NCBI GenBank assembly: GCA_041650955.1
Contig: JBAZKG010000003.1
Location: 42,766-106,765, forward strand
Reading direction: 5' to 3'
DNA from: Patescibacteria group bacterium
Lineage (GTDB): Bacteria; Patescibacteriota; Patescibacteriia; 2-12-FULL-60-25
DNA: 64,000 nt
Part shown: positions 1,017 through 61,958 of the stretch, in pieces
Layout of the letters: each line of letters starts with the position of its first letter
Numbering within the stretch: the stretch's first letter is position 1
The notes under the pieces: generated by a model
What the model saw: only the letters and a program-made list of their open reading frames with translations
Told to the model about the DNA's origin: nothing
The model's database searches: none
Program-made: the position numbers and the translations under genes

Positions 1017-1020
1017 TCTC

Positions 1021-5102: not shown

Positions 5103-5104
5103 AA

Positions 5105-13857: not shown

Positions 13858-13870
13858 ATTCGTTTTAAAT

Positions 13871-14067: not shown

Positions 14068-14069
14068 AT

Positions 14070-14208
14070 AAAAAAAGAACCGCACGACCTTGTTTGCAAG
14101 GGGTGCGGTTCGAGTGAAAGCGTCAGAGAAGAACGAGCTTTCCACCATGGACCCGAAGACCTTTCGGTCAACCTTCTGGTTATCATCTTCCGACAAACTC
14201 CATGGCCT
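14070..14208 (-). ncRNA. Candidate small RNA (~135 nt) of unknown class
   Basis: Minus-strand TTGACA-17-TAAAAG promoter (14215-14243). No ORF longer than 6 codons follows an in-frame start with an SD. GNRA hairpin GACC-GAAA-GGUC. Strong terminator GAACCGCAC...GTGCGGTTC plus T8 at 14070-14111. Confidence 0.4.
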
Positions 14209-20581: not shown

Positions 20582-20660
20582 GCCATTAAGGAACTAGGCC
20601 ACTACGCCACTAGGGAATTGCATTTTCCCTAGTGGCGTAGTGGCCTAGTTCCCTAGTGGC
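20582..20660. repeat. PPE, family G
   Basis: GCCATTAAGGAACTAGGCCACTACGCCACTAGGGA / ATTGCATTT / TCCCTAGTGGCGTAGTGGCCTAGTTCCCTAGTGGC. Confidence 0.9.
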
Positions 20661-28791: not shown

Positions 28792-28820
28792 ATGGTAAGG
28801 GAAAATGAGAGGAAAGTCAA
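28792..28820 (-). promoter_or_regulatory. Sigma70-type promoter of tRNA-Glu
   Basis: Minus strand reads TTGACT-17 nt-TACCAT, about 20 nt upstream of the tRNA 5' end. Confidence 0.65.
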
Positions 28821-28821
28821 G

Positions 28822-28928
28822 AATAGGTCTGTATGTCTGTAGGACTGTAGGACTGTAGGTTGCTATTTCTGATGACTTCAGGCAGAGCGACCTACTGTCC
28901 TACAGTCCTACAGACATACAGACCTATT
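28822..28928. repeat. PPE, family A
   Basis: AATAGGTCTGTATGTCTGTAGGACTGTAGGACTGTAGGT ... ACCTACTGTCCTACAGTCCTACAGACATACAGACCTATT. The loop CTGATGACTTCAGGCAGAGCG is homologous to the loop of 376-486. Confidence 0.9.
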
Positions 28929-29388
28929 CTTCATCCCTCACCTTCCTCCGTAACTGCTTGATTTTCGACGTTCTCTCTTTTGCGTCTAGACGGCGCAATT
29001 TTGACGCGCGCGTTGGCTTTGTATCGATACGTTGGATTTCTGGTTTGAGCGCATCACGAACGAATTGGCGAAGCTTGTGGATCGCTTCAATTTTATTTTG
29101 AGCTTGAGACCGTTGATCTTCCGAATCGACAACAAGATAACCGTTTTTATTCGTCGTGAGCTTTGTCATCAATGTCTGCTTTTGCTCATCATCAAAAACA
29201 GACGAGGACATAATTGGCCATTTGACGACGACTTTCGTCTCGCGCTTGTTTACATTCTGTCCGCCCGGACCGGATGATCGGGCGGTTGAAATCTCCAATT
29301 CATTTTCAGGAACTTCGGGAACGGTATGCGGCATATCAAACAATGCATATTTTACGTGAGTATTGATAAAAAGGCGAATATGAGGCAC
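28924..29388 (-). CDS. arfB: Peptidyl-tRNA hydrolase ArfB (class-I release-factor GGQ domain; ribosome rescue)
   Basis: ELEISTARSSGPGGQNVNKRETKVVVKW plus a basic C-terminal tail KPTRASKLRRLDAKERTSKIKQLRRKVR. The start may be ATG 29334 rather than GTG 29388. Confidence 0.85.
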   Translation of the reverse strand: MPHIRLFINTHVKYALFDMPHTVPEVPENELEISTARSSGPGGQNVNKRETKVVVKWPIMSSSVFDDEQKQTLMTKLTTNKNGYLVVDSEDQRSQAQNKIEAIHKLRQFVRDALKPEIQRIDTKPTRASKLRRLDAKERTSKIKQLRRKVRDEE

Positions 29389-48578: not shown

Positions 48579-48670
48579 TTGGTCTACGAATGTACGAATG
48601 ATACGAATCGGCGAATAACTCGCTATGTGACCATTCGCCGATTCGTATCATTCGTACATTCGTAGACCAA
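48579..48670. repeat. PPE, family H (8-nt unit ~TACGAATG), perfect 38-bp arms
   Basis: TTGGTCTACGAATGTACGAATGATACGAATCGGCGAAT / 16-nt loop / ATTCGCCGATTCGTATCATTCGTACATTCGTAGACCAA. Confidence 0.93.
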
Positions 48671-48675
48671 CAGAA

Positions 48676-49815
48676 CTAACGTTGATATTTCTGTATGACT
48701 TCATTTAGAAATCCACCAAATCGTTGTTTGAACAGCTGATCCGAAAAAGATTCCGCGTGCGCGTGAATGCGAATCGGATCGTATTTTGACGGATCAAAAC
48801 GGATGATCGCATCTCCGATGTCTTCCCATGTCTGTGCCTCAATATATTCTCCGGTGACGCCGGGCACAACCGTTTCCGCCGCGCCGCCTTGGCCGTAGGC
48901 GATGATTGGTTTGCCGGCGGCCATTGCCTCGACGGCGGTGATGCCGAAGTCCTCGACATGCGGATGAATAAATCCGATGGCATTCGAAAAAAGTTCGCGC
49001 TTGGCATCTTCCGAAATCCATCCCAAGAATTCGGTTTTTGATCCGGCGATGCGCTTGAGCCGCTTTAATTCCGGCCCAACGCCGAACACTTTGAGCGGCA
49101 TATTCAGTTTTGCAAACGCCCGCACCGTGAGATCAAAACGTTTGTACCCGACGAGACGGCCGCCAGTGACCCACCCCCCTTCGCCCATCGAAGACTCTGG
49201 GCTTCGGGGGGCAGGTGACGCGTGAAAATCTAGGACATCAACGGGTGGGTGGATGACCATGGCGTCGCGGCCGTAGTAGCGGCGGATGCGCGCGCGGCTT
49301 GTTTGGGAGTTGGTGACAACGATATCCGGTCGTTCCGCGGCAATGCGATCCCATAAGCGAAGGCGGTGGAGGATCGGCGGCAGAAGACGTTTAATAAGTC
49401 GAGGTTGCGAAAGATCATTCACATACGACTGGCGATCTTCCCACAAAAAACGTGTGGGCGTGTGTAAATAGCAAATATGAAGCGCATTCGGAGCGGCGAT
49501 TGCGCCTTTTGCGAACGTGCTTGAACTTGAGATCACAATATCGTAGCCGGATAAATCAAAATGCTCGATGGCCATGGGCATGAACGGCAATGTCCATTCT
49601 TCGCGTCCGCGAATAAATGGAAGGCGCTGTAAATCGCTCACGCGAATATCTTTTCCGCGGAAGGACGCATGCGTTCGATTCGGATTATAAAAAAGCGTGT
49701 AGGTGGGCGCGGCCGGAAACATTTCCTGCAATGCCCGAACGACGCGTTCGCCTCCGCCATCTTGGATAAGATAGTCATGCACAATCGCAATGCGCAATCC
49801 GTTCGTCCCACTCAT
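48676..49815 (-). CDS. Glycosyltransferase family 4
   Basis: LRIAIVHDYLIQDGGGERVV N-terminus and FIHPHVEDFGITAVEAMAAGKPIIAYGQGGAAETV (E-x7-E region). 379 aa. Confidence 0.9.
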   Translation of the reverse strand: MSGTNGLRIAIVHDYLIQDGGGERVVRALQEMFPAAPTYTLFYNPNRTHASFRGKDIRVSDLQRLPFIRGREEWTLPFMPMAIEHFDLSGYDIVISSSSTFAKGAIAAPNALHICYLHTPTRFLWEDRQSYVNDLSQPRLIKRLLPPILHRLRLWDRIAAERPDIVVTNSQTSRARIRRYYGRDAMVIHPPVDVLDFHASPAPRSPESSMGEGGWVTGGRLVGYKRFDLTVRAFAKLNMPLKVFGVGPELKRLKRIAGSKTEFLGWISEDAKRELFSNAIGFIHPHVEDFGITAVEAMAAGKPIIAYGQGGAAETVVPGVTGEYIEAQTWEDIGDAIIRFDPSKYDPIRIHAHAESFSDQLFKQRFGGFLNEVIQKYQR

Positions 49816-49863
49816 GCGGCTATCCTAGCGGATGGGGAGGGGAGAGGCGAGGATGGGTCAAGG

Positions 49864-49954
49864 TAGCCAGTAGGCCATCATCAGCCAGTAGGCCATAGCC
49901 AGTAGCCAGTAGGAATTGCTCTTACTACTGGCTACTGGCTCAACCCTACTGGCT
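49864..49954. repeat. PPE, family E variant (GCCAGTAG units)
   Basis: GTAGCCAGTAGGCCATCATCAGCCAGTAGGCCATAGCCAGTAGCCAGTAGG ... ACTACTGGCTACTGGCTCAACCCTACTGGCT. The right arm is identical to that of 25862-25934. Confidence 0.85.
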
Positions 49955-50005
49955 ATCAAAATCCCCGCCGGTCGACATCACTGTCAAACGGCGGGGGAGT
50001 TGTTG

Positions 50006-50029
50006 TAGGGGCGCACAGCTGTGCGCCCT
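50006..50029. repeat. REP variant
   Basis: GTAGGGGCGCACAGCTGTGCGCCC, the same sequence in reverse complement as 47343-47366. Confidence 0.85.
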
Positions 50030-50081
50030 TGAGAGATAAACCATCGCGTCCGTGAGAGATCAACCTGCGCCCTTGAAGGAG

Positions 50082-50528
50082 CTACCTGGTGAGATCGATC
50101 CAAATGCGTTCGCGTTGTCTGCGCACGATCCTTGTTTCTCCAATTTGAATGAGCGATTCAGCGTAGAGCGTCTCCATTTCAAGAAGCTTTGCTTTCGCTA
50201 TGAGAACATCCATGAGTTGTTGCTGAATGTCACGACGTTTGTCAGGAGCAACTCGTTGTTCGGTCACAACAAAGTCATGAATCATTCCTTCAAATCCGGT
50301 GAGTTTTCGAATCGGGACAAGCGTTGCCATTCCGACGACACCAAGAAGATCTTCGTCCAATGCAAGTACAACATGGCCGCTCGTACACGCTGCTGCAAAA
50401 AAGAATTCCAGTAGCGCTCTAGGGACATCGCACGTTTTGACATTTTTGAGTTGAGCCGCGAGCGCCTGAATTTGTCCCATATACTTCATGACTGAAAGTG
50501 GATCTTGTATCCAGTCGAATGTGATCAT
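50082..50528 (-). CDS. Hypothetical protein, possibly GNAT-fold acetyltransferase-like (weak)
   Basis: 148 aa. Its start overlaps the def stop (ATGA). The beta-alpha pattern ..VVLALDEDLLGVVGMATLVPI..GMIHDFVVTEQ.. is GNAT-like, but the Q/RxxGxG/A motif is absent. Confidence 0.5.
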   Translation of the reverse strand: MITFDWIQDPLSVMKYMGQIQALAAQLKNVKTCDVPRALLEFFFAAACTSGHVVLALDEDLLGVVGMATLVPIRKLTGFEGMIHDFVVTEQRVAPDKRRDIQQQLMDVLIAKAKLLEMETLYAESLIQIGETRIVRRQRERIWIDLTR

Positions 50529-51136
50529 ACTTCCTCCTTTGCGCCAAAAGCGCGGGCGATTTCACTCGAGGTTTTCAGGCCCCACTGTTTCGCGAAGAAC
50601 GTTCGCGACGGCATCACGGATCCCTTGAGCGCGATATCTGTAAAGACAATGCCTTCCAGATGATTGATTTCGTGCTGAAGAATGAGCGAATACCAGCCGA
50701 TCGCATTGATGAGAATTTCTTTCCCTTCTTCGTTATACGCTGTGACGCGTATGGACCAATGATAGGGAACGGCACCCCATACGCCGGGAACGCTCGCGCA
50801 CGAAACGAATGCATGACATACATCGTTTCCACGCGGCTCCATTGTTGGAGAAAAGAGCGCATGGAAAGGGATTGGCGTGTCTCGTAAAAATGGCCGCCGA
50901 CGTTCCATGGGAACCTGGTCGATATACGCCTGCAGGTCTTCGATAACGATCATCGGCGGATAATCCAACCCGACTTGATTGATCGCGAGTCCGACGCTAC
51001 TTGTTTTGCGCAGAAGCTCTTGCATTTCAAAGATGAGAGCTTGTGTCACTGGATGGTTAATTTGTTCCGGTGTGATCGGTCGAACCAAGGTATGAAGCAT
51101 GGGATGATCCGGGCCGACGATATTGAGTGACGACAT
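50525..51136 (-). CDS. def: Peptide deformylase (divergent motifs)
   Basis: SVGLAINQVG (motif 1), VSCASVPG (motif 2; the usual EGCLS, Cys kept), QHEINHLEG (motif 3, HExxH). SD AAAGGAGGTGAC-ATG. Confidence 0.8.
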   Translation of the reverse strand: MSSLNIVGPDHPMLHTLVRPITPEQINHPVTQALIFEMQELLRKTSSVGLAINQVGLDYPPMIVIEDLQAYIDQVPMERRRPFLRDTPIPFHALFSPTMEPRGNDVCHAFVSCASVPGVWGAVPYHWSIRVTAYNEEGKEILINAIGWYSLILQHEINHLEGIVFTDIALKGSVMPSRTFFAKQWGLKTSSEIARAFGAKEEV

Positions 51137-51200
51137 GTCACCTCCTTTATTGTGAATGTTCAGTTTGCACCGAGGTCAAACGCGGCCTCGTATGATGGAG

Positions 51201-51229
51201 GGTGTATCAGAAAATGGGGGGAATGTCAA
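51201..51229 (-). promoter_or_regulatory. Sigma70-type promoter of def
   Basis: Minus strand reads TTGACA-17 nt-TACACC. Confidence 0.55.
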
Positions 51230-51236
51230 AGAAGAG

Positions 51237-51309
51237 GGGCGTGGGGCGTAGCGTATGGGGCGTGGTGAAAGATCTTTCACCACGCCCCGCACGCTACGCC
51301 CCACGCCCC
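51237..51309. repeat. PPE, family C
   Basis: GGGGCGTGGGGCGTAGCGTATGGGGCGTGGTGAAAG / AT / CTTTCACCACGCCCCGCACGCTACGCCCCACGCCCC. Confidence 0.9.
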
Positions 51310-51604
51310 AAATGAAATGCCGCCGGTATCCTACTTATTTCGGATACTCGGCGGCACGATAGGGTGTAGTTGGTTGCTCTTGCAAACGGGTCAGGGACAT
51401 GTCCCGTCTTTTGTCGTTTACGCGAGGCGTTTGACTACTATTGCGGGCCGAAGGGCGACGGTCACTTGGTATTTAGATTAAAGAGATTGCTTCTTCGCAT
51501 GCAGGATTTCCCTTTCTGCGTTGCTTGTTTTTCGACTTTTGGCCAAATCATTGGCCGACGGTACGGTACGAACCATCTGTCCTATACGTTCAGGACTTCA
51601 GGAT
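51310..51604 (-). ncRNA. Candidate ~295-nt non-coding (or micro-ORF) transcript of unknown class
   Basis: Near-consensus promoter TTGACA-17-TAGAGT (51611-51639), whose -35 box contains the sugar-transferase stop codon. Several local hairpins. Strong terminator TGCCGCCGAGTATCC..GGATACCGGCGGCA plus U-rich tail (51318-51356). Only a 31-codon ORF (MVRTVPSANDLAKSRKTSNAEREILHAKKQSL). Confidence 0.4.
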
Positions 51605-51610
51605 GGCGAG

Positions 51611-51639
51611 ACTCTAACAGAGAACGGCCAACTTGTCAA
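51611..51639 (-). promoter_or_regulatory. Sigma70-type promoter of the candidate transcript
   Basis: Minus strand reads TTGACA-17 nt-TAGAGT. Confidence 0.7.
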
Positions 51640-53057
51640 TAGGCGCCTCTTCGTGTCGCCACCACGAACGGCGTTTTTAATAAAATCCAGATATCGAGCC
51701 CGGGCGACCAGTGCTCGATATACCATGTGTCGAGTTTGACCTCGTCTTCGAAATCCAAATCCGCGCGGCCGGAAATTTGCGCCATGCCGGTGATGCCCGG
51801 CTTGATGCTTAACACTCGGCGATGATGCGGCTTGTAGAGTTTTACTTCTTCGGGCAGATGCGGTCGCGGACCGACCAAGCTGACATCGCCTTTCAAAACT
51901 AGAAACAGTTCCGGCAATTCGTCGAGTGACCACGCGCGCAGAAATCGTCCAACGGATGTGACGCGCGGATCACGTCGAATTTTCATAAGAGGTCCGGCGC
52001 GGTGGCTTCCATATTCTTTCATGAACGCCGGATCAAGATGGAGTTTATCTGCGCCGACTTTCATTGTCCGAAATTTAAAATAATTGAATGGGACGCCGTC
52101 TTCACCGATGCGTTGAAGCGGCGTTCCATCCGACCGTTTTGAGTAGAAGACAGGGCCTTTCGAAGTGAATTTGATGGCAAGCGCGATCAAAATCATCACA
52201 GGAGAAAGAAGGATAATCAAAATCAGCGAGACGATAAAATCAAACAGGCGTTTAAAAATACGCCCCCATCCTTCGAGCGGCGTGCGCTTGACTTCGATGA
52301 TCGGAATGCCGCCATTCGTCGTCACAGAGATATTCGTAAAGCTCGCGGCAAACAAATCAGCGAGATACTTGAATGTGACGTTTCGCGCTTCGGTGATTGC
52401 GATGAGTTCCACGGCGTCTTCTTTTGAAATCATCGGATCGGCAAGCAGGACTTCATCAATGGCCCGATCTTTCAGAAGTTTTTCCAGATCGGTTTTTGAC
52501 GCTTCATTCCACGAAGGAAAACGACGGGCGACCGTATAGCCGAGGACCGGATTGGATGCAAACAGATCTGCAAGAGCGATTGCGGCTTTACCTTTTCCGA
52601 TAATGGCAATTGTTCGATGGCCGAGGCGCGCGCGGAGAAGCGAGTGGCGGATGACGCGCAGAAGCAAGCGGACGATTTCCACGAACAGAATCGAGAGCGA
52701 CCAGAGCGCGAGAATGATAAAACGCGACGTCGTGAAATCGCGCTGAAAGAACACGGTCGCGATTAATATCATGACTCCAGCCGTACAGCTCACGATCACG
52801 CGGCCGAATTCTTCCCATGCGCGTCGTTCGCGTCGCTGATAAAGTCCGGCGATTGCAAAGATGCCCACGAAGATCGCAGAGAAAATAATGGACGTCGTTA
52901 GATACCTCGCGAACGGGATCGCAGTCAAAATCGGACGGATTTCAATAAATGCCGCGGAAAAACGAAGCGTGTATGCCGCGAGCGCGGCAAGCATAAGCGC
53001 GGCAAAATCAAGCGGAACTTGAAGCGCAAGGAAAGTGAGGTCAAAGCTTCGGCGCAT
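51636..53057 (-). CDS. Polyprenyl-phosphate sugar-1-phosphate transferase (WbaP/EpsL-type bacterial sugar transferase)
   Basis: 473 aa. N-terminal TM block plus C-terminal KRLFDFIVSLILIILLSPV...KFRTM...LDELPELFLVLKGDVSLVGPRP. Confidence 0.92.
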   Translation of the reverse strand: MRRSFDLTFLALQVPLDFAALMLAALAAYTLRFSAAFIEIRPILTAIPFARYLTTSIIFSAIFVGIFAIAGLYQRRERRAWEEFGRVIVSCTAGVMILIATVFFQRDFTTSRFIILALWSLSILFVEIVRLLLRVIRHSLLRARLGHRTIAIIGKGKAAIALADLFASNPVLGYTVARRFPSWNEASKTDLEKLLKDRAIDEVLLADPMISKEDAVELIAITEARNVTFKYLADLFAASFTNISVTTNGGIPIIEVKRTPLEGWGRIFKRLFDFIVSLILIILLSPVMILIALAIKFTSKGPVFYSKRSDGTPLQRIGEDGVPFNYFKFRTMKVGADKLHLDPAFMKEYGSHRAGPLMKIRRDPRVTSVGRFLRAWSLDELPELFLVLKGDVSLVGPRPHLPEEVKLYKPHHRRVLSIKPGITGMAQISGRADLDFEDEVKLDTWYIEHWSPGLDIWILLKTPFVVATRRGAY

Positions 53058-53089
53058 ACATTCAAGATACTATGATAGCACGTGATTGG

Positions 53090-53202
53090 GGTTCTACGAA
53101 TATACGAATGATACGAATCGGCGAATGACGTGCTACGAAAGCATTCGTAAATTCGTACCATTCGTAATTCGCTGATTCGTATCATTCGTATATTCGTAGA
53201 CC
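53090..53202. repeat. PPE, family H (long loop with extra TTCGTA units)
   Basis: GGTTCTACGAATATACGAATGATACGAATCGGCGAAT ... ATTCGCTGATTCGTATCATTCGTATATTCGTAGACC. Confidence 0.9.
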
Positions 53203-53235
53203 AAAAAATAAAAAACTCGACATCGCTGTCGAGTT
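53203..53235 (-). terminator. Intrinsic terminator of rnpB
   Basis: Minus strand reads AACTCGACA-GCGA-TGTCGAGTT followed by TTTTTATTTTTT. Confidence 0.85.
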
Positions 53236-53240
53236 GTTTG

Positions 53241-53701
53241 ATGCCAAGACCGAACGATAAGCCGAATTTTGTCCCCCGTCGTCCCCCCGTAGCTTTACGC
53301 GAAGGGGGGGTCTGGGAGGGCAATCATCTATCTGGGATGATCATTGCTGATCACCTCGTTGCGAGCGACCAGTCTCCCGACGTACGTCGGGATCTTGCTC
53401 TTGCACCGGAGAGGGCTTGCCGCGCTACGTTGTTACCAACGCATGAGAGATGTAACAGATGTCTTTCGACACCCATACCATCTCACTTTTCACTTTTCCC
53501 CCGATGGACATCGGGGTAGTATTGTCTCTGTGGCGCTTTCCCTGGGTTTATAGTGAACGTCGGGTACGTATCCTTTCGTTCTCTACCATATCCCGGCCGT
53601 CGTTAACGGCTCTCCATGAACCCCGATGGACATCGGGGAACGGTGTTCGGACTTTCCTCCCCGATGGACATCGGGGCGATTGCCTGTTCGACCTTGGCTT
53701 C
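53241..53701 (-). ncRNA. rnpB: RNase P RNA, bacterial type A (~460 nt)
   Basis: Minus strand starts GAAGCCAAGGTCGAACAGGCAATCGCC...GAGGAAAGTCCGAACAC (P1-P4) and contains GCCACAGAGACAA, GAAAAGTGAAAAGTG and GGTAACAACG...GGTGCAAGAGCAAG. It ends ...GACAAAATTCGGCTTATCGTTCGGTCTTGGC, which pairs back to the 5' end. Compare E. coli GAGGAAAGUCCGGGCUCC and ACAGAACCCGGCUUAUCGGUCAG. Confidence 0.92.
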
Positions 53702-53704
53702 GCG

Positions 53705-53733
53705 ATTGTAATGTATGTTTGGCAGAATGTCAA
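53705..53733 (-). promoter_or_regulatory. Sigma70-type promoter of rnpB
   Basis: Minus strand reads TTGACA-17 nt-TACAAT, with the mature 5' end GAAGCC 4 nt downstream of the -10 box. Confidence 0.8.
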
Positions 53734-53743
53734 GGATTGAAGA

Positions 53744-53836
53744 AAGTCAATAAGTCAACGAGTCGATAAGTCAACAAGTGCACTGACTGACGGTTTGAGA
53801 ACTCGTTGACTTGTTGACTATTTGACTTGTTGACTT
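53744..53836. repeat. PPE, family B variant (AGTCAACA units)
   Basis: AAGTCAATAAGTCAACGAGTCGATAAGTCAACAAGT ... ACTCGTTGACTTGTTGACTATTTGACTTGTTGACTT. Confidence 0.9.
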
Positions 53837-53918
53837 GTGTTTGAAAGGCTTGATCTCTTTCAAGAATCTTGATACAACCTGTACCTGACGGTTTTCACAT
53901 ATTCAAGGAGGTGCCGTC

Positions 53919-54341
53919 ATGATGAGTTTGAACATTACAACTCTTATTGCCTTTGCGTGCGTGGCGCTCTCTGCCGTGATTGGCCTCATGTTCGCAATTG
54001 CCACAACGTATCATGCGAATCATACGAGTCATGCAACAAATTACTTCACATGCACAGATCCATACATGTCAGTTGTGCATTGGAGTGTCTGTACAGGGAT
54101 CGTTGGCATGTTTTCCACGGCTGTCTGTCAGTTTGCCATTGCGGTTCGAAGCTTCCATACCGTCCCGTTAATACGCGAGGAAGAATTCGTGCTTATCGTG
54201 CGTAACGAACAGGGAGTTTTTCAGTGGATTATGTTGGTTGTAGCGTTTTCCCTTCTCAACTTTGTGATCGTAAAAGCAATATCTGCTCCAAAAAAGTGCA
54301 GGCAGATGCATCTCGTCCAGTCTTCGCGCAGTTCCACTTGA
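53919..54341 (+). CDS. Hypothetical membrane protein
   Basis: 140 aa, SD CAAGGAGGTGCCGTC-ATG, 4 TM helices. Confidence 0.65.
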   Translation: MMSLNITTLIAFACVALSAVIGLMFAIATTYHANHTSHATNYFTCTDPYMSVVHWSVCTGIVGMFSTAVCQFAIAVRSFHTVPLIREEEFVLIVRNEQGVFQWIMLVVAFSLLNFVIVKAISAPKKCRQMHLVQSSRSST

Positions 54342-54378
54342 TACAAAGAAGAAATCAACGACGTTCTTTCTCGAAATC

Positions 54379-54411
54379 AAAAAGCCAGTCCGCATTCGCA
54401 GGCTGGCTTTT
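54379..54411. terminator. Bidirectional terminator between convergent genes
   Basis: AAAAAGCCAG..CTGGCTTTT hairpin. Confidence 0.8.
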
Positions 54412-54424
54412 ATGAACCGATATT

Positions 54425-55222
54425 CTATTTTTTATTTTCTAATGTCGCGACATGTTTCGCCGCCCCTTCCGCATACATCTTATGAATTTCTTTGCTCGTG
54501 AGTGAGCGGTTAAAAATGCGAACGTCGTTCATATACCCATTGAAGGAAAACGGTCCGCCTCCGCCGTAGTTTCCTAACCGGATGGTTGCGGTTGGAGCCA
54601 CAGCCGTAACAACCTGCTTCTTATCCAGACTCCCATCGACATACAAGTATTCCGTTGTTCCGTCATACGCGACAGCGAGGAAATACCACTTCCCCATTAC
54701 AGGAGAAGCATTGCTGACGATGCAATTTCCCGAGGCATTCGTACAGGCAGCAAAATGGCCGGCATTCACGGATACATAATTGTTATTTACTCCTTCATCA
54801 AATATATATTGATTGCCGCTTACGGTTCCATTGATATATACCCATAAGGTTTTTGAATGTTGAAGGTTGATTGTCGGTATCGTGTCAGATAAAAAATTCA
54901 AGTCTCCTCCTGGAAAATTCAGAGAACAGCCCTGGCCATTCGGGCTCGAAGCAATAAAAGTGATGGCCGTGCTTCCAAACGTTAAATTATTATTATATCC
55001 GCTTGAATCATTCGCCGTTGTTCCATTGCATTCGTCAAAATCCCAACGGGCAATCAGATCGTCTCCAACAGATCGAAGAATCTGCGCAGAATGCGCCGAT
55101 CCTTTTGCCAGACGTGCTTTTTCGCGTGCGCCGTTTAGCTGGACGACTCCAAGCGTTGCCAACAACCCGATGATCGCAATAACGACAAGGAGCTCGATGA
55201 GGGTAAAGCCTCGTGGTTTCAT
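54425..55222 (-). CDS. Type IV pilin-like protein fused to a LamG/concanavalin-like domain (paralog 1)
   Basis: ATG 55222. Prepilin signal MKPRGFTLIELLVVIAIIGLLAT, and a C-terminal NDVRIFNRSLTSKEIHKMYAEG typical of LamG-type laminin-G domains. The track start reads through a PPE. Confidence 0.85.
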   Translation of the reverse strand: MKPRGFTLIELLVVIAIIGLLATLGVVQLNGAREKARLAKGSAHSAQILRSVGDDLIARWDFDECNGTTANDSSGYNNNLTFGSTAITFIASSPNGQGCSLNFPGGDLNFLSDTIPTINLQHSKTLWVYINGTVSGNQYIFDEGVNNNYVSVNAGHFAACTNASGNCIVSNASPVMGKWYFLAVAYDGTTEYLYVDGSLDKKQVVTAVAPTATIRLGNYGGGGPFSFNGYMNDVRIFNRSLTSKEIHKMYAEGAAKHVATLENKK

Positions 55223-55247
55223 ATTAATAGGGAGTATATCAAGAAAA

Positions 55248-55304
55248 GAAGCGAGAAGCGAGCACGAGAAGATGATCTTCTCGTGCTCGCTTCTCGCTTC
55301 TCGC
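55248..55304. repeat. PPE, family L
   Basis: GAAGCGAGAAGCGAGCACGAGAAGA / TGA / TCTTCTCGTGCTCGCTTCTCGCTTCTCGC, between the two pilin genes. Confidence 0.9.
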
Positions 55305-55309
55305 ATCTA

Positions 55310-56083
55310 TTATCTTTGAGCGACATGCCTTGCCACCCCTTCCGCGTACATTCGGTGGACTTCCTCGCTTGTGAGCGAGCGGTTATAAATACGCAAATCG
55401 TTGATATTGCCATTGACGCGTTGACCGCCGCTGCCGGAATTTCCGATCGTCACGGACGTTGTTGGATTTACTGAAGCTGCTGTCGCGCTTTTATCTAAGC
55501 TACCGTCGATATACAAAGATAATCTTGATCCGTCATAAGTTGTAGCAACGAAATACCACTTATTCGTCACTGGCTGTAGGAAACTATCAAAATAATACGT
55601 AGTATTTAGTCCTACTCGGATATGTCCGAGATACACTTGAACGAAATGATTAATTACCCCCTCATCCAAGAATGTTTGCGGTCCCGCAACCGGTCCAATG
55701 ATATATATCCACATTGTTTGCGTCTGCTGAGCACTCCACGAGGGTACGGTGGCCGTGACCTGATTCGTCCCGTCAAACGTCAGTGAACATCCTTGTCCGT
55801 TTGGCGAAATTGCTGTTTCCGTCACTCCGCTCCCAAGCGTAAGATTATTTCCATATCCGCTTGAATCAATCGCGGGACCGGCTGTCACGCATTCGTCAAA
55901 ATCCCAACGCGCGACAAGATCATCTCCGACGCTGCGGAGGATTTGTCCGGACTGCGCCAATCCTTTTGATACTCTTGCTTTGTCTCTTGCACTCGAAAGC
56001 TGCACGAGCGCGAATGTTGCCAGGAGTCCGATGATCGCAATGACGACGAGAAGTTCGATGAGGGTAAAGCCGCGGGGTTTCAT
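55310..56083 (-). CDS. Type IV pilin-like protein fused to a LamG/concanavalin-like domain (paralog 2)
   Basis: MKPRGFTLIELLVVIAIIGLLAT ... NDLRIYNRSLTSEEVHRMYAEG. TATACT lies 6 nt upstream of the ATG with no SD, so the mRNA is possibly leaderless. Confidence 0.85.
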   Translation of the reverse strand: MKPRGFTLIELLVVIAIIGLLATFALVQLSSARDKARVSKGLAQSGQILRSVGDDLVARWDFDECVTAGPAIDSSGYGNNLTLGSGVTETAISPNGQGCSLTFDGTNQVTATVPSWSAQQTQTMWIYIIGPVAGPQTFLDEGVINHFVQVYLGHIRVGLNTTYYFDSFLQPVTNKWYFVATTYDGSRLSLYIDGSLDKSATAASVNPTTSVTIGNSGSGGQRVNGNINDLRIYNRSLTSEEVHRMYAEGVARHVAQR

Positions 56084-56103
56084 GGAGAGAGTATAGCAAA
56101 ATC

Positions 56104-56171
56104 AGTAGCTGGTAGCTAGTAGCTGGGGCTATTTGGAAGTTTTTTCTTCCAAGCTTCCAGCTACTATCTAC
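56104..56171. repeat. PPE, family E (imperfect)
   Basis: AGTAGCTGGTAGCTAGTAGCTGGGG ... CCAAGCTTCCAGCTACTATCTAC. Confidence 0.8.
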
Positions 56172-56210
56172 GATCTGCTTCCCCGTGCTACAATCCTACA
56201 GGTTTATTGT

Positions 56211-58223
56211 ATGAAAAAGCTCCTCGTTTTTCTTATCCTCATTCTTGCGATACTGGCAGGAGGTGGATATTGGTTCTGGTCGCTCGGGCGCATTCCGGCT
56301 GAAGTTCCCCGAACCGCAGCATTGAACATCGAATCCCAGGGCGTGCAGATTCGAAGAACGCGCGATGCGGGCTGGGAACAGGCAAATAGCGGAATGCAAA
56401 TCTATGAAGGATGGTCGGTCAAAACGGATGAAAACGGGCGGGCAACGATTCGTTTTTATGATCAGGGCGAAACGCGCCTGTCGCAGAACACGGAGATTGT
56501 CGTTGACAAAGCGTCATTTGAAATGAGTGGAGCCGGACGCATGATTGTTTCCGTTAAATTGCAAACCGGACGCGTCTGGAGCCGAATATTGAAACTTCTT
56601 GATATCGGAAGCTCGTATGACGTCCGCACGACCAATATTGTAGCGACGGTTCGAGGAACGTCGTTTGATCTTTCAAAGAACGCAGACGGATCATCGGACA
56701 TCCTTGTCGGAGAGTCGGCCGTAACGGTTGCGAATCTCGGAGGAAAAACCGTGACATCGGTCGCCGAAGGAATTGTGGCAAGTTTTAACGCTTCTGGCGC
56801 GCTCGTCCATCAAGAGTTCGCATCAAGCGCCACCCAAAATCAATGGATCATGAGCAACGAACTTGCGGATTCGGCATTCGTCGATACGGAGAAAAAAATC
56901 CAGCGCGACCAATTGCAGGCGCTTGGCGGTCCGGGCCCTGACAGCAATCTCTATGCCATAACCCAGTTGTCCGAACGCGTTCATCTGGCGCTTGCAAAGG
57001 GAGCGGAAAAAGATGCGCTTGCGGAACAGTACGCCGCGCGAAAGATTTTTCATCTCATCGAACTCGTTGAATCCGGAAAAACGGGTCTGGCGGCGCAGGA
57101 ATTTTCCAAACTTGATGCATCCGTCAAAGCGTTGCCGACAGGCTCGGCGGGGGAAGCTGAACGCGTGCATCTTGCGAACGCGTTATCGCGAATACATTTC
57201 CTTGTTCAAGACGCGAATCCATCCGATGCCATGTATCCGTTCAAACAGCGCGTTGAAAATCTTGTGAGCGAGCTTGCCGCCTCGGATCCAGCCTCATCTT
57301 TCTATGTGCGCATGCTCGCCTTCGATGCGCGTCTTGATGAAGCGTCGAATGCCATCACGAATCGGTCATTCGACGAAGCGCGCATCGGCTTAGATGGCGT
57401 CCGGGACGGAATCGAGAATATCCGCCGCGAGTCCGCTCCGATTTTTCCATCATTGCCTGAAGAACGCCGAAGCGCGCTGGAAGACAAGCTCGCGGCGCTT
57501 GATGCGCGCACGGTTATGATGCGCATGCGGCTTGATCTTGCCATGCGCGAGCCGCAGGGAGGTTCGAGCACGTCGACCATGCCGGGCATTACGAATCCGC
57601 CGGACGGCGCGCTCACGCCTGATGCGCCGAATGCATCCAGTTCCGCGCTGTCGGGCTTTTCGAATGCGCAGACAGGCAATACGCCCGCATTTACGTCGAT
57701 CGAAATATCGCTCGCATCGCATACGCTTGATATTGGGAAATTGGTTTCCATCAAAGCAAAAGGCATTTTAGCCGATGGGACAAAAACCGATATCACGAAT
57801 CTCACGCAATTCGCCATCGACCATCCGGATATTGCGGTCGTGAACGGACCGACGGTCAAAGGATTGCGCATCGGGAACGGCGTGATCACGGCAACGTATA
57901 ATGACGGAGGAACGCAGAGAACAGCGACGTCGAATGTTGTGGTGCAGGGAAAAATCGTTCCGGTTGAACTCATTCTTAAATCCATGTCCGGATCGACGAT
58001 CGCAACGTCGACAACCTCTTTGCTCTCCGCAACCTTGAGATATAACACGGATGAATTAAAGAATGTGACGGCGAATACGAATTTCACTATCGTCGAAGGG
58101 GGAGGATCCATTTCGAATGGGGCGTTCACGGCATCAAACGAACCGGGAGCCACCTCCATCACCGGTTCAACGGTTGAAAACGGCGTCACGATTATCGGAA
58201 CAATGAAAATCATCGTTAAGTAG
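56211..58223 (+). CDS. Membrane-anchored FecR-domain protein with C-terminal bacterial Ig-like (Big_2) domains
   Basis: ATG 56211 (MKKLLVFLILILAILAGGGYWFW). FecR-like RATIRFYDQGETRLSQNTEIVV. Big_2-like LADGTKTDITNLTQFAIDHPDIAVVNGPTVKGLRIGNGVITATY. Confidence 0.8.
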   Translation: MKKLLVFLILILAILAGGGYWFWSLGRIPAEVPRTAALNIESQGVQIRRTRDAGWEQANSGMQIYEGWSVKTDENGRATIRFYDQGETRLSQNTEIVVDKASFEMSGAGRMIVSVKLQTGRVWSRILKLLDIGSSYDVRTTNIVATVRGTSFDLSKNADGSSDILVGESAVTVANLGGKTVTSVAEGIVASFNASGALVHQEFASSATQNQWIMSNELADSAFVDTEKKIQRDQLQALGGPGPDSNLYAITQLSERVHLALAKGAEKDALAEQYAARKIFHLIELVESGKTGLAAQEFSKLDASVKALPTGSAGEAERVHLANALSRIHFLVQDANPSDAMYPFKQRVENLVSELAASDPASSFYVRMLAFDARLDEASNAITNRSFDEARIGLDGVRDGIENIRRESAPIFPSLPEERRSALEDKLAALDARTVMMRMRLDLAMREPQGGSSTSTMPGITNPPDGALTPDAPNASSSALSGFSNAQTGNTPAFTSIEISLASHTLDIGKLVSIKAKGILADGTKTDITNLTQFAIDHPDIAVVNGPTVKGLRIGNGVITATYNDGGTQRTATSNVVVQGKIVPVELILKSMSGSTIATSTTSLLSATLRYNTDELKNVTANTNFTIVEGGGSISNGAFTASNEPGATSITGSTVENGVTIIGTMKIIVK

Positions 58224-58309
58224 CTAGGAGCTAGTAGCTAGTAGCTGGGGTGGATGAAGGGATTTCTTATATTTATCTTCCCAGCTACCAGCTACTAGCT
58301 CCTAGCTAC
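58221..58309. repeat. PPE, family E
   Basis: GTAGCTAGGAGCTAGTAGCTAGTAGCTGGGG ... CCCAGCTACCAGCTACTAGCTCCTAGCTAC. Its first TAG is the stop codon of the FecR-like gene. Confidence 0.9.
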
Positions 58310-58315
58310 CTCTTC

Positions 58316-60304
58316 ATGAAGCCATTCCAGTCCAAACACCTCCCAACCATCATCGGAGCGGCGATCGGACTGCTCTGCGCTCTTTTCTGGTCTCTTGGCG
58401 TATTTCAAACGCTCACGGCACGGGCTGGAGATCAATTATTTACCTCGCGCCATCCGAATCCGCATATCGTGATCATCGCGATTGACGATGCGTCGATTTC
58501 ATCCGTAGGACGCTGGCCTTGGGATCGGTCCGTGCATGCAAAATTGATTCGCTCCCTGTCCAAAGCAGGCGCGCGGCTGATCGCGTATGATGTGAACATT
58601 TCGGAACCGCAAGACGGAAAACAGGATGCGGATCTTGCTTCCGCAGTTGCACAGGCGGGGAATGTTCTTCTTCCCGTTGAGCTCGATCTGCAGAAAACAT
58701 TCGGGACATACGCCTACGATCCGGATCATGTGATTGCGCCCATCGCATCGCTTGCGGCCGCAGTCGAGGGGACCGGATTTTCAAACATGATGCCGGATTC
58801 GGACGGCGTGGTCCGCCGCATTGCATTATCCGCAAAGAATGCGCGGGGATCGGATGTTGTTTTTTCATTCGGCTATGAAGCGGCGCGAGCATCGGATCCA
58901 TCGCTCGCAACCGAACGCGTTCCGCTGGATGCGCAAAACCAGCTCATTATTTCTTTCCCCGGAAAACCGTCAGCTTCATTCCCGATGATTTCCGCCGAAG
59001 ACGTGCTGGCGGAAAACATGCAGACGAATTCGCTCCGCGATGCGATTGTTTTTGTCGGAAGCACGGCATCGGATTTGCATGACGAGCAGTTCGTTCCGAC
59101 ATCGCAGGGAGTCCCGATGTCCGGCGTGGAAATCCATGCGTCGATCGCCGATACGCTCGTACAGCGCGCATGGCTCCGTCCCGTTCCCAAGTTGATCAGC
59201 GCCATCATTATTATTCTGTTCGCCGCGCTGGTCGGTTTTGCCGTTGGAAAATGGAAAGGGCGATTCAGCGCCCTCTTTGCCGTTCTTCTTTGGGGGTCGT
59301 CTCTTCTTGCGGCAATTCTTCTGTTTGATCAGGGCATCATGTTCGATATTGTGTGGCCGACCATCGCAATCGTTCTTGCCTACGCGGGAGCGACGGCCGA
59401 ACGGCGCATTGCCGCCGAACTGGAACGGCGGTCCGTTGAACGGTTATTCTCGCGCTACGTGAGCCCGAAAGTCGTTGAAGCGATCGTGAAAGATCCAAAC
59501 AGCATTTCGCTCGTCGGCGAACGGCGAAACATGAGCGTTCTCTTTTCCGACATTCGCGGATTTACGTCGCTCACGGAACGGCTACAGCCGGAAGCGCTTG
59601 TTCGCATGCTGAATGCCTATTTTGATGCAATGACGCATGTCGTCTTTGATCACCAAGGCGTGCTGGACAAATATATCGGCGACGCGGTCATGGCATTTTG
59701 GAATGCGCCGTTTCATCAGGACGATCACGCTGTCCTTGCCGTGTCATGCGCCTTGCGCATGAAAGAGATTTTGCGCGACATGAATGAATCCGGCCTTCTC
59801 GGCAAATCGGCATGGCGCATCGGCATCGGCGTGAGCACCGGGGACATGATTGTCGGCAACATCGGCGGAGGCGCGCATACGGACTATACGGTGATCGGCG
59901 ATGCTGTGAATATTGCCAGCCGACTCGAAGAACTGACGAAAGAATACCGCGTGGGAATTCTGATTTCCGAGCCGACGGCAAAAGCCGTGAGCGAAACGAT
60001 TTTGACGCGCCGCCTTTCGCGCGTTCGCGTATTCGGCAAGCACATTTCCGTGAATATGTACGAAGCCGTCGCACACCTCGGTCAGGCGACGGAAAAACAA
60101 TTGTCTCTGCGCGAAACATACGAGCGCGCGCTCGAAGCATACGAAGCGCGGTCATTTGACTCGGCGATAAAAATCCTTCAAGCTCTTTTAGTTGATGTTC
60201 CTGATGACCAGCCATCGCATATCCTTTTGGAACGCGCGAAAAATTTCCTCACCTCCCCTCCGCCGGAAGATTGGGACGGGACGTGGATTTACACGAAGAA
60301 GTAG
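58316..60304 (+). CDS. CHASE2-domain class III adenylate/guanylate cyclase
   Basis: ATG 58316. CHASE2 (WPWDRSVHAKLIRSLSKAGARLIAYDV), 3 TM helices, cyclase core VLFSDIRGFTSL..GDAVMAFWNAP..RIGIGVSTGDMIVGNIG..YTVIGDAVNIASRLE. Confidence 0.9.
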   Translation: MKPFQSKHLPTIIGAAIGLLCALFWSLGVFQTLTARAGDQLFTSRHPNPHIVIIAIDDASISSVGRWPWDRSVHAKLIRSLSKAGARLIAYDVNISEPQDGKQDADLASAVAQAGNVLLPVELDLQKTFGTYAYDPDHVIAPIASLAAAVEGTGFSNMMPDSDGVVRRIALSAKNARGSDVVFSFGYEAARASDPSLATERVPLDAQNQLIISFPGKPSASFPMISAEDVLAENMQTNSLRDAIVFVGSTASDLHDEQFVPTSQGVPMSGVEIHASIADTLVQRAWLRPVPKLISAIIIILFAALVGFAVGKWKGRFSALFAVLLWGSSLLAAILLFDQGIMFDIVWPTIAIVLAYAGATAERRIAAELERRSVERLFSRYVSPKVVEAIVKDPNSISLVGERRNMSVLFSDIRGFTSLTERLQPEALVRMLNAYFDAMTHVVFDHQGVLDKYIGDAVMAFWNAPFHQDDHAVLAVSCALRMKEILRDMNESGLLGKSAWRIGIGVSTGDMIVGNIGGGAHTDYTVIGDAVNIASRLEELTKEYRVGILISEPTAKAVSETILTRRLSRVRVFGKHISVNMYEAVAHLGQATEKQLSLRETYERALEAYEARSFDSAIKILQALLVDVPDDQPSHILLERAKNFLTSPPPEDWDGTWIYTKK

Positions 60305-60387
60305 CTAGGTGCTGGTAGCTAGTAGCTGGGGCATCGGATGGGCTTCCAGTATCTTCTTATCTTCCTAGCTACCAGCTACTAGCTACT
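60301..60387. repeat. PPE, family E
   Basis: GTAGCTAGGTGCTGGTAGCTAGTAGCTGGGG ... CCTAGCTACCAGCTACTAGCTACT. Its first TAG is the stop codon of the cyclase gene. Confidence 0.9.
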
Positions 60388-60391
60388 AATT

Positions 60392-60943
60392 ATGATCAAA
60401 CCTCGACTTCTCCTCCATGTCTGTTGCGGCGTCTGTTCCGCTTATATCCCGGAGCTTTTGGCTCCGGATTTTGACGTAACCATGTATTACGATAATCCGA
60501 ATATTTATCCGGCAGAGGAATTTCGAAAGCGAGCCGATGCGGCGAAAGAAATGGCAAAACGGTATGGCATGGCCTTTGTCGAAGTTCCGCAAAATGTTGA
60601 ATCATGGAATCTGGCAGTCGTAGGACATGCGACGGATCGGGAAAACGGCGAGCGATGCCGCTTATGCATGGTTCATCGCTTGGACAGCGCATTCGCATAC
60701 GCAAAAGAACATCAATTCGACGCCGTTGCGTGCACGCTCGGCGTCAGTCGTCGCAAGCATATCGACATGGTGAACGCGATCGGCAAACAATTGTCAGACG
60801 CGTACGGCATTCCATTCCTCGATCGCGATTGGAGAAAAAACGGCGGAGAAGATGAATCCCAGCGCCGCGCCCGCGAGTACGGCATCTACCGGCAGGAGTA
60901 TTGCGGGTGCATTTATTCGATGAAGAAGTCGGTTAGTCGATAA
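60392..60943 (+). CDS. queH: Epoxyqueuosine reductase QueH (DUF208)
   Basis: LLLHVCCGVCSAY, ERCRLCMVHRL and QEYCGC form the Cys pattern of QueH. 183 aa. The last 6 codons (KKSVSR) and the stop lie in a PPE. Confidence 0.88.
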   Translation: MIKPRLLLHVCCGVCSAYIPELLAPDFDVTMYYDNPNIYPAEEFRKRADAAKEMAKRYGMAFVEVPQNVESWNLAVVGHATDRENGERCRLCMVHRLDSAFAYAKEHQFDAVACTLGVSRRKHIDMVNAIGKQLSDAYGIPFLDRDWRKNGGEDESQRRAREYGIYRQEYCGCIYSMKKSVSR

Positions 60944-61006
60944 GTCGGTGAGTCGGTTAGTAAATGCAATTACTCACCGACTCACCGACTTATCGACTTC
61001 CCGACT
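60925..61006. repeat. PPE, family B
   Basis: GAAGTCGGTTAGTCGATAAGTCGGTGAGTCGGTTAGTAA / ATGCAA / TTACTCACCGACTCACCGACTTATCGACTTCCCGACT. Confidence 0.9.
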
Positions 61007-61029
61007 GTTCTTCCTGTATCATCCCTCCC

Positions 61030-61863
61030 ATGAAACGCATTGCCACGCCTCTCCTCATCGTGACCGTCCTCTTCATGGGCTGGGGTTGCGTTCGCGGCGG
61101 AGCGACCCAACCCGTCGTTTCTTCTCGCTCCTCGCTCCTCGCTCCTCGCTCCTCATCTACGACGACCGCCGAAGCCGCAATACCTTTCACGTGGTCATCC
61201 ATCGGCGATGGCGCGGAACGCGGAGAAAAGACGATTCCGAACGGCGAATATACGGCGCATCTTATTGCGTACCGTTTTGATCCGAAGAAGTATGATTTTC
61301 ATTTTGCGCAAACAGATCAGCCAAAACTTGTGAGCGCATGGATGCAGGAAAATTCAACAGCTTCGTTTATCATCAACGGCGTGTATTTTCAGGAGGATCA
61401 TTCTCCGGCTGGGATGTTGAGGATTGATAATACAAATGTCGGTTCACGGAGTTTTGATGCAAAAAAATCAGGGTTGATTATATTCGGTTCTGACGGGAAT
61501 CGGATTATGGATACGTCCGTCAACAACGTGAAAGATCCAAAAGCTTCAAACGAAGCGCAGAGCTATCCGTTCTTGATCAAGAATGGGTCTCCAGCGATAC
61601 AGGATGACAGCGGTCTTGTCGCGCGCCGTTCATTTATCGGAATAGATATAGACGGAAAAATTATTTTCGGCGCCTATGTCGGCGGAGAAATCAGTTTATC
61701 GTCTCTGTCTCAACTCCTCGCGACGCTTCCCGTCACATGGACGAACGCAATCAATCTGGACGGGGGAGCATCAACGGGATTTTCGGCAAATATCAGCGGT
61801 TATCAAGAACTTGAGGATTCGTACGTCGATATTCCGAATGTAATTGAAGTAGAGAAGCGCTAA
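61030..61863 (+). CDS. Phosphodiester glycosidase-family (DUF2233) lipoprotein
   Basis: ATG 61030. MKRIATPLLIVTVLFMGWGC lipobox-like signal, and NLDGGASTG near the C-terminus. It contains a family-L tract encoding SSRSSLLAPRSSS. Confidence 0.78.
   Translation: MKRIATPLLIVTVLFMGWGCVRGGATQPVVSSRSSLLAPRSSSTTTAEAAIPFTWSSIGDGAERGEKTIPNGEYTAHLIAYRFDPKKYDFHFAQTDQPKLVSAWMQENSTASFIINGVYFQEDHSPAGMLRIDNTNVGSRSFDAKKSGLIIFGSDGNRIMDTSVNNVKDPKASNEAQSYPFLIKNGSPAIQDDSGLVARRSFIGIDIDGKIIFGAYVGGEISLSSLSQLLATLPVTWTNAINLDGGASTGFSANISGYQELEDSYVDIPNVIEVEKR
61125..61154. repeat. Family L tract (CTCGCTC units) inside the DUF2233 gene
   Basis: CTCGCTCCTCGCTCCTCGCTCCTCGCTCCTC, one arm only, in the linker after the signal peptide. 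Confidence 0.85.
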
Positions 61864-61868
61864 GCGTG

Positions 61869-61958
61869 TTGGTCTACGAATGTACGAATAATACGAATCG
61901 GCGAATACTCACAAAGGAAGTATTCGCCGATTCGTATTATTCGTACATTCGTAGACCA
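61869..61958. repeat. PPE, family H, perfect 41-bp arms
   Basis: TTGGTCTACGAATGTACGAATAATACGAATCGGCGAATACT / CACAAAGGA / AGTATTCGCCGATTCGTATTATTCGTACATTCGTAGACCA. Confidence 0.93.

Follow-up and report, generated by a model that had tools for sequence, protein, structure and literature searches.

Mirrored differences between the arms of tandem-unit palindromes in a Patescibacteria genome: a possible product of arm copying at the DNA level

The Foldback transposons of eukaryotes, such as FB of Drosophila and Galileo, bear long inverted repeats at both ends that consist of short subrepeats in tandem, the element being nearly all inverted repeat, and the arms within one copy are reportedly more alike than the arms of different copies. 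We know of no bacterial counterpart. In REPINs (REP doublets forming hairpins, REP being repetitive extragenic palindromic) changes in one half of the hairpin are reported to be commonly compensated in the other, and an asymmetric intermediate has been proposed, from which the symmetric form would have to be restored (PMC3116915). It is established that template switching makes imperfect inverted repeats perfect and that their arms evolve in concert as a result (PMC5941160, PMC7202029), whilst direct repeats of heptamers are known as the short tandemly repeated repetitive (STRR) sequences of cyanobacteria and as the TAACTGA repeats of Beggiatoaceae, Cyanobacteria and Bacteroidetes (PMC4679880). 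The subject here is a set of palindromic repeats in a stretch of 64,000 nucleotides from a Patescibacteria group bacterium (the window; positions 42,766 to 106,765 of contig JBAZKG010000003.1, assembly GCA_041650955.1), in particular those built of TACGAAT units, termed family H. Copies of these repeats differ from one another in a mirrored fashion, with a change in one arm matched in the other, and it is put at roughly even odds, a probability of about 0.5, that these mirrored differences reflect a process acting on DNA, in which one arm is copied from its partner within palindromic repeats of fast turnover.

A hairpin scan that covered the window and 8.9 kb of the same contig (73 kb), with shuffled controls, found 52 hairpins, with none in shuffled sequence. 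The arms of most are tandem units of 7-8 nt, and of 7-10 nt over the families as a whole, with spacers of 0-3 nt, falling into at least 12 families that include AGAAGTT, AGTCGGT, GTAGCT, GGGGCGT, GTAGGAC, GCCACTA, ATTGTT, GTCCACA and TACGAAT. Unit polarity is strict within the window, always 5'-unit...complement-3' with no pair of opposite polarity. The hairpins are intergenic in many cases at 0-20 nt from stop codons, and by our own rough calls of open reading frames (ORFs) they occupy 45% of co-directional, 45% of convergent and 39% of divergent gaps.

The association between the two arms of a copy was measured on multiple sequence alignments, with arms aligned per family and right arms re-paired among copies. 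The mismatch rate of an arm with its own partner is 0.04-0.08, compared with 0.07-0.34 with the partners of other copies (combined P<1/4000); a variant of the re-pairing test with 4-nt padding diluted the signal, and an earlier ungapped comparison at the best register, which gave 6.1% within against 11.9% between copies, is biased by trimming. For 11 families and 102 hairpins the deviations from the family consensus are 157 unpaired and 135 paired, where 57 paired would be expected if the arms were independent. An excess of compensatory pairs, which the first-pass annotation had made the test of its observation, is hence found across the 11 families, although family H taken alone has none. Private unit variants are also mirrored (AGAAAAT, AGAAGTC, AGAATTT and CTACGCC). 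Transversions make up 38% of the paired deviations and, by our own count, ~41% of the unpaired mismatches are of transversion type, so that the paired changes are not enriched in transitions. Mismatches read on the sense strand in contexts of unidirectional transcription are 35 G.U and 36 A.C. Family H is the weakest case for the mirrored excess, the other families being strong.

Family H, with palindromes of ~90-110 bp, has three copies in the window (Table 1), which were read individually and by means of an inverted-repeat scan. The arm order of copy 1 is TTGGTC-TACGAAT-G-TACGAAT-GA-TACGAAT-CGG-CGAAT. Compared with it, the left arm of copy 3 has GA>AA, giving A 61890, and its right arm TC>TT, giving T 61938, so that the matched G>A and C>T changes claimed by the first-pass annotation are real (G 48600:C 48649 versus A 61890:T 61938), as are the perfect arms of both copies, 38 bp and 40 bp long. 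The matched pair it had reported in copy 2 was also seen on inspection, with A 53102 and T 53191 as against G:C in copies 1 and 3; copy 2 has a single unmirrored site besides, G 53120 facing T 53173, thus the variable sites among the three copies are two mirrored and one unmirrored. From the window alone, two mirrored among three variable sites would have a probability under independent point mutation that we estimate at ~1e-4; calculated from the arm haplotype counts with 13 further copies included, the chance that at least two of the three window copies are fully concordant is ~0.03.

All three copies fold into a long hairpin (z = -11 to -18 versus shuffles). Copy 1 lies between two minus-strand glycosyltransferase ORFs, and copy 3 nearly fills the gap between the stops of ORF 60964-61863 (+) and trpS at 61959-62948 (-). 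Copy 2, the centre of which is 32-40 nt long and contains additional ATTCGTA units, has the RNase P RNA gene with its terminator upstream of it and a sugar-transferase gene downstream, each of them on the minus strand; the terminator is a canonical one at 53207-53235, between the RNase P RNA gene and the copy, and the gene itself (53242-53695, minus strand) has 454 nt against a model of 367 positions, pointing to insertions. It is unlikely that the elements are an assembly artefact, because each is shorter than the assembler k of 141 (contig name k141); they also lie inside a 121-kb contig (ENA ERZ27247363) and are found again in independent assemblies and metagenomes, with the right arm of copy 3 recovered in an independent short-read assembly (L121, Logan SRR8542065).

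The sample of family H was enlarged through a metagenome scan for H-specific unit spacing, which led to contigs of the metagenome Ga0265297 ("genome B") with 13 further H elements in which the ends (GGTC...GACC) and the units are the same and the loops are related. These contigs carry the full family repertoire of the window and have no other DNA in common with it in the sampled regions, and a search for proteins shared by the Ga0265297 genome and the window found no orthologue; a MITE-like element (miniature inverted-repeat transposable element) at 13863-14070 of the window is 94.7% identical to one at 11978-12186 of Ga0265297 locus L140. As the ends, units and loops recur in Ga0265297, family H is a dispersed repeat that is copied whole and not a local accident.

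In a fixed-frame alignment (A1) of the 16 H elements, 3 from the window and 13 from Ga0265297, the arms are far more conserved than the loops, and the variation falls in the spacer columns that separate the units, which are themselves nearly invariant. Paired cells amount to 94.1% versus 93.0 +/- 0.5 in shuffles (16/500 reach the observed value) and double-sided change affects 6 pairs versus 4.2 (75/500). The total spacer discordance of 29 is that expected from re-pairing (P=0.42). Concordance is bimodal, with no discordance in 5 of the 16 elements, one discordance in a single element and 2-4 discordances out of 4 positions in the other 10, and the 5 fully concordant elements compare with an expected 1.56 (P=0.014). 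The arm haplotypes of the two perfect window copies, GAAG and GGAG, are the two that occur most often, the spacer combination differs in every perfect H palindrome, and the combination of left and right arm is unique to each of the 16. In most of the Ga0265297 copies the seemingly compensated positions are plainly mismatched whilst the 7-bp unit helices are kept. Two composites with the same nested insert, L146 and L172, have H arms that differ by AG versus GA in a mirrored way, the core arms being free of unmirrored changes; the insert (L146 5786-5996 and L172 8898-9053) is a second tandem-unit hairpin, GATTGGT/GGTCATT, within the H loop, and in L146 one inner arm has grown to about nine GGTCATT units and has no mirror copy. 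Because the variable sites are hypervariable spacers with few common alleles, part of the mirroring in family H would be produced by random pairing of common arm types as well, and the term compensatory substitution overstates what has happened in this family, the label being partly apt.

The nearest homologues of TrpS are at most 84% identical and, with the gene content, indicate Candidatus Uhrbacteria, Patescibacteria, and not a cyanobacterial (STRR) origin. Syntenic relative contigs with 77-83% TrpS identity have 0-1 such hairpin per 10-14 kb, and the gap at the 3' end of trpS, which is 95 nt in the window and almost all hairpin, is 3 nt or 46 nt in these; at the same site other relatives have a plain terminator between non-complementary arrays, or a MITE-like element. 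The closest relative recovered by a cyclase search, L180 (58% cyclase identity), has tandem-unit palindromes at 3525-3600, 5675-5740 and 6290-6345, in gaps orthologous to those of the window at 58220-58309, 60300-60386 and 60935-60998, and in each of the three the unit family differs from that of the window; the gap orthologous to the FecR/CHASE2 gap, for example, holds an AGTCGGT-family palindrome where the window has one of the GTAGCT family. Another relative, L122, has a hairpin of another family after the SBP_bac_5 stop. It is apparent that the elements are gained, lost and replaced much faster than host proteins diverge, and since hairpins are missing or swapped for another family in syntenic relatives the copies must be young relative to host divergence.

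The first-pass annotation had left two readings side by side, a secondary structure under selection, or one arm regenerated from the other. The first has fared poorly, given the lack of a G.U bias, the transversions, the occupied divergent gaps, the mismatches in family H and the relatives without hairpins. Regeneration of arms has gained ground from the bimodality of family H, the private mirrored variants and the paired excess. What was observed directly is how the elements are built, how they are dispersed and turn over, the mirrored excess across families and the absence of RNA-type signatures. The copying step, and which of two routes it takes, birth or correction, are inferred. The repeats are non-coding, foldback-like elements that have spread through the intergenic space of an Uhrbacteria-like Patescibacteria lineage and turn over quickly, and one arm would be made periodically from the other. 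A copy may be born as a perfect inverted duplication; alternatively, template switching during replication at a quasi-palindrome may, in one step, remove every imperfection of an inverted repeat. Once mutation, or exchange with another copy, had brought a variant into a single arm, it would be written into the partner arm. This reading is preferred because of the all-or-none concordance in family H, the private mirrored variants and the youth of the copies compared with host divergence. Template switching predicts just such all-or-none concordance together with mirrored transversions; the bimodality, the mirrored AG/GA pair and the 38% transversions would fit it, and there is no effect of loop length. 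Longer loops do not go with a higher mismatch rate (Spearman -0.15, P=0.12), and it is the hairpins with long loops that are most often perfect; for this reason the evidence leans towards palindromic birth over an ongoing, hairpin-dependent correction.

A number of points weigh against arm copying, among them this flat relation to loop length. In family H the covariation is marginal, with a score of 0.088 versus 0.073 +/- 0.009 (23/500 shuffles reach it), and the excess of paired deviations is nil, 6 versus 5.9 expected. Conservation of the units exceeds that of the spacers more than 10-fold, for which arm copying alone is insufficient, therefore there must be either an added constraint on unit sequence, such as a recognising protein or a need of propagation, or exchange among copies. 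The paired deviations are counted as cells and not as events, and subfamily structure inflates them, tandem registers complicate the alignment of arms, and hairpins are mainly detected through pairing, which biases towards concordance. When arms were detected first, nearly all AGTCGGT and AGAAGTT arrays proved to be paired, so this bias is small in those two families, although single arms and decayed partners exist too. A hairpin in 4/4 gaps of the single locus L180 could equally mean that the host needs hairpins there. Finally, neither an intermediate nor a transposase for the tandem-unit families was seen.

Arrays of TACGAAT also occur in other genomes. Genome contigs were scanned for three TACGAAT units; the source genome is outside the matches listed, which are mostly unrelated arrays of Patescibacteria and Bacteroidota, and the counts that follow refer to those matches. 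The unit is found in at least 119 loci, in many Patescibacteria and some metagenome-assembled genomes (MAGs) of Bacteroidota. A spacing of (3,1) is seen in 84 of 144 arrays, 60 of the 84 having a fourth unit directly upstream, and the layout Y-TACGAAT-TACGAAT-N3-TACGAAT-N-TACGAAT is shared by dozens of Patescibacteria and some Bacteroidota MAGs. The arrays are single or in inverted pairs, with a polarity of 61 versus 9, and between the arms the units match at ~95% whilst the spacers are non-complementary. Single arrays have no preferred orientation relative to genes (25 versus 18). An Rfam search of the loci with TACGAAT arrays gave nothing at threshold, the hits below it being look-alikes of microRNA hairpins only. 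One inverted array (L013, 1905-2002) lies in the 23S-5S rRNA spacer of a MAG labelled Gammaproteobacteria.

The conserved layout across many Patescibacteria hints at a recognising factor, and two further explanations build on this. It is doubtful, though worth stating, that the repeats form an undescribed prokaryotic class of foldback element, in which unit arrays would be recognised by a protein, an intermediate would have one arm, the second arm would arise by fold-back synthesis and the element would move between lineages; rebuilding of the second arm would explain the mirrored variants. The fixed unit-unit-N3-unit-N-unit layout, present in dozens of Patescibacteria and in some MAGs of Bacteroidota, would fit such a class, and so would a family repertoire common to genomes otherwise without shared DNA in the sampled regions. 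Alternatively, the arms could be terminal repeats that bind a transposase or other protein, with subfamilies of matched ends inherited from different master elements, as in insertion sequences (IS) and MITEs. Conserved units with free spacers, defined outer ends (GGTC...GACC), the strict polarity in the window and its counterpart elsewhere, the array layout and the Y1 transposase-like ORF in the window are all what binding ends would lead one to expect, and the MITE-like copy at 15504, with its unrelated interior, is exactly such a pattern. The mirrored variable sites of family H, however, are in spacers and not in the conserved units, 16/16 H elements have distinct combinations of left and right arms, unlike the products of a few master copies, neither a target-site duplication nor a cognate transposase was found, and a genome of ~1 Mb, a size assumed here as typical of Patescibacteria, would require many specificities to serve its more than 12 families. 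Inherited matched ends are thus considered quite improbable.

Two further explanations were weighed. A functional hairpin, be it an RNA stem-loop or a DNA cruciform acting as terminator, barrier to RNA decay or processing site, would acquire compensatory changes under purifying selection. Such a function would account for arms conserved far above loops, for own-partner arms that match better than the arms of other copies, for the many hairpins that begin 0-20 nt past stop codons and for the four occupied gaps of L180, three of them orthologous to the window with other families, and both mirrored changes of the window are G:C to A:T transitions. Yet G.U is no commoner than A.C on the sense strand, 38% of the paired changes are transversions, divergent gaps are occupied almost as often as the others (39% versus 45%), 10/16 H elements are discordant at 2-4 of the 4 "compensatory" positions, the syntenic relatives have 0-1 hairpin per 10-14 kb, and in relatives of 77-84% TrpS identity the gaps measure 3-8 nt and are free of hairpins. 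Moreover, a terminator-type T-run is absent, canonical terminators being separate, beside or inside the elements, and the stems of 25-40 bp contain A+T. Selection on the hairpin is accordingly held to be distinctly improbable, neither the features of an intrinsic terminator nor those of a selected structured RNA having been found. For family H it could also be that the arms are independent draws from a small pool of common variants, the mirroring in the window being a small-sample effect. The paired deviations and total spacer discordance, both at expectation, agree with this, as do the two commonest haplotypes in the perfect window copies and the ~0.03 chance of their concordance. Against it are the 5 fully concordant elements where 1.56 are expected, the arms of L146 and L172 that differ in mirrored changes only, the strong paired excess of other families and the mirrored private unit variants, which together make chance pairing an unlikely account. 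Copying of one arm from the other remains the preferred reading.

The coordinates of the features in the window are collected in Table 1.

Table 1. Positions of palindromic repeats and related features in the window
Feature	Position	Strand	Details
Family-H copy 1	48579..48670	.	arms 48579-48616 and 48633-48670, 38 bp perfect, loop 16 nt
Spacer position s2a, copy 1	48600	+	G paired with C 48649; equivalent in copy 3 is A 61890 with T 61938
Family-H copy 2	53093..53200	.	arms 53093-53130 and 53163-53200
Family-H copy 3	61870..61958	.	arms 61870-61909 and 61919-61958, 40 bp perfect, loop 9 nt
MITE-like element	13859..14079	.	52-nt terminal inverted repeats; sisters 8256-8512, 15504-15706
GTAG-headed REP cluster (GTAGGGGCG...CGCCC)	4395..5260	+	surrounds ORF 4536-5102
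AGAAGTT-family palindrome	3265..3342	.	arms 33 bp perfect; AGAATTT unit variant mirrored
Further AGAAGTT members	3630-3699, 26852-26931, 27848-27935, 31054-31123, 37804-37873		
AGTCGGT-family palindrome	948..1017	.	others 29400-29468, 30172-30246, 33454-33536, 60935-60998
GTAGCT-family palindrome	58220..58309	.	fills FecR/CHASE2 gap
Further GTAGCT members	12326-12429, 14841-14943, 40412-40495, 60300-60386		
GTAGGAC-family palindrome	28819..28931	.	conserved 29-nt loop; sister copy 376-486
GGGGCGT-family palindrome	51236..51309	.	others at 47950-48078
GCCACTA-family palindrome	20590..20652	.	arms 28 bp perfect; CTACGCC variant mirrored

The two GTAGGAC copies have outer flanks that differ from each other in mirrored fashion. 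Partnerless single GGGGCGT arrays lie at about 14285-14310, 16421-16453 and 2797-2822, and in the GCCACTA element at 63755-63830 the partner arm has decayed through substitutions and indels. Arms at 26852, 31054, 58220, 60935 and others overlap the last codons of the upstream ORF by 4-9 nt, therefore TAG or TAA inside the units act as stop codons. A pair GAAGA(A)...(T)TCTTC stands at the outer or the loop-side ends of hairpins in several families (window 376-486, 40412-40495, 51236-51309 and 60290-60310; L180 1215-1235), and a loop motif GATGCAA/ATGCAAT is common to different families. Canonical bidirectional or terminator-like hairpins lie within loops of the GTAGCT family (L130 1514-1612, L139 5577-5678 and window 14841-14943), a case of arrays on both sides of a pre-existing hairpin. 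The 404-aa ORF 47363-48577 (-) spans two tandem-unit hairpins, at 47672-47737 and 47950-48078; its likeness to glycosyltransferases is confined to the C-terminal 80 residues, and truncation of the gene, or an ORF drawn too long, is the probable explanation. In an Rfam search of the window the RNase P RNA and one tRNA were the only matches, the hairpins having no family.

Mirrored differences are not limited to the tandem-unit hairpins, and here too the first-pass annotation saw correctly. The termini of the MITE-like copy at 15504 differ from those at 8256 and 13859 at several mirrored positions, its interior being unrelated, and the REPs keep the GTAGGGGCG head, followed by an inner stem of ATCCGCCGGAT, CACAGCTGTG or CGCCGCTGGCG. 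Dispersed GTAG-headed REPs at 5992, 38046, 38085, 47366(-) and 50005 have in common an outer stem GGGCG...CGCCC and differ in their palindromic inner stems (CACAGCTGTG, CGCCGCTGGCG, TCCGCCGCGGCGGA). The ORF at 4536-5102 (+), of 188 aa, has a match to Pfam Y1_Tnp (IS200-like) with 27.4 bits in its C-terminal half only, and one REP lies inside it at 4800-4841; it looks like a REP-associated tyrosine transposase (RAYT), possibly disrupted.

The tiny genomes of the Candidate Phyla Radiation (CPR) are thought to be streamlined; nevertheless, in this CPR lineage ~45% of the intergenic gaps are filled by palindromes of a dozen tandem-unit families, and these are swapped at orthologous sites faster than proteins diverge. 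Mirrored substitutions in a hairpin are routinely taken as proof of a selected RNA structure, whereas here they would mostly come from arm copying at the DNA level, a warning to those who search repeat-rich genomes for RNAs by covariation. A search of the literature on repeat elements of Patescibacteria did not find a description of these repeats. A high density of inverted repeats in Uhrbacteria-type phyla has been recorded, as a statistic, in one survey (PMC13155455), and the elements described here would give that statistic an anatomy.

As for the known systems, bacterial MITEs are likewise non-coding, of 60-200 bp, multi-copy and intergenic with terminal inverted repeats, they have nested insertions and their presence differs between relatives. 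The tandem-unit elements differ in being almost wholly inverted repeat with arms that are internally tandem-repeated, and no parent IS is known; in the flanks of 16 H copies, inspected by eye, a consistent direct repeat that could be a target-site duplication was not found. The Foldback transposons are set apart by being eukaryotic and kilobase-sized, with some encoding a transposase.

With the REPs and REPINs of RAYT systems (PMC3116915, PMC3733652) the elements share being short, abundant, extragenic palindromes with long hairpins, and hairpins with compensatory halves, as in REPINs, are seen across families from the folding and the paired excess, weakly so in family H alone. Unlike these, the H arms are arrays of tandem units in place of two self-palindromic REPs. 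A REP unit is an imperfect palindrome of 20-40 bp with an unpaired GTAG/CGTC head, whereas the H arms are not self-complementary, and their CTAC/GTAG lies within the paired outer unit with the polarity 5'-CTAC...GTAG-3', opposite to that of REPs. Nor do tandem-unit hairpins avoid divergent gaps, and in 82 kb of the genome the RAYT-like ORF 4536-5102 is flanked by GTAGGGGCG REPs and not by tandem-unit hairpins. The STRR and TAACTGA repeats (PMC4679880) are also intergenic arrays of a conserved 7-nt unit that is common to distant lineages, with no link to gene function and an unexplained origin, and each arm here is just such a tandem array, with spacers of 0-3 nt and inverted pairing in addition. 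Those repeats are overwhelmingly direct, with one indirect repeat in 170 sets, and are often orientation-specific upstream of start codons, whereas the arrays here are mainly inverted pairs of strict polarity and of many unit families.

Template switching at quasi-palindromes (the Ripley model; PMC5941160, PMC7202029) is alike in that perfection comes in one event, several sites change together and no RNA function is needed. It differs in being a mutational mechanism and not a family of elements, which here would act on hundreds of dispersed copies with arms of 25-40 bp, and the dependence on loop length that it leads one to expect is not seen. The mechanism most likely at work is one already known, and it is the carrier, tandem-unit palindromes of many families, that appears to be an undescribed variant of the REP, MITE or foldback kind.

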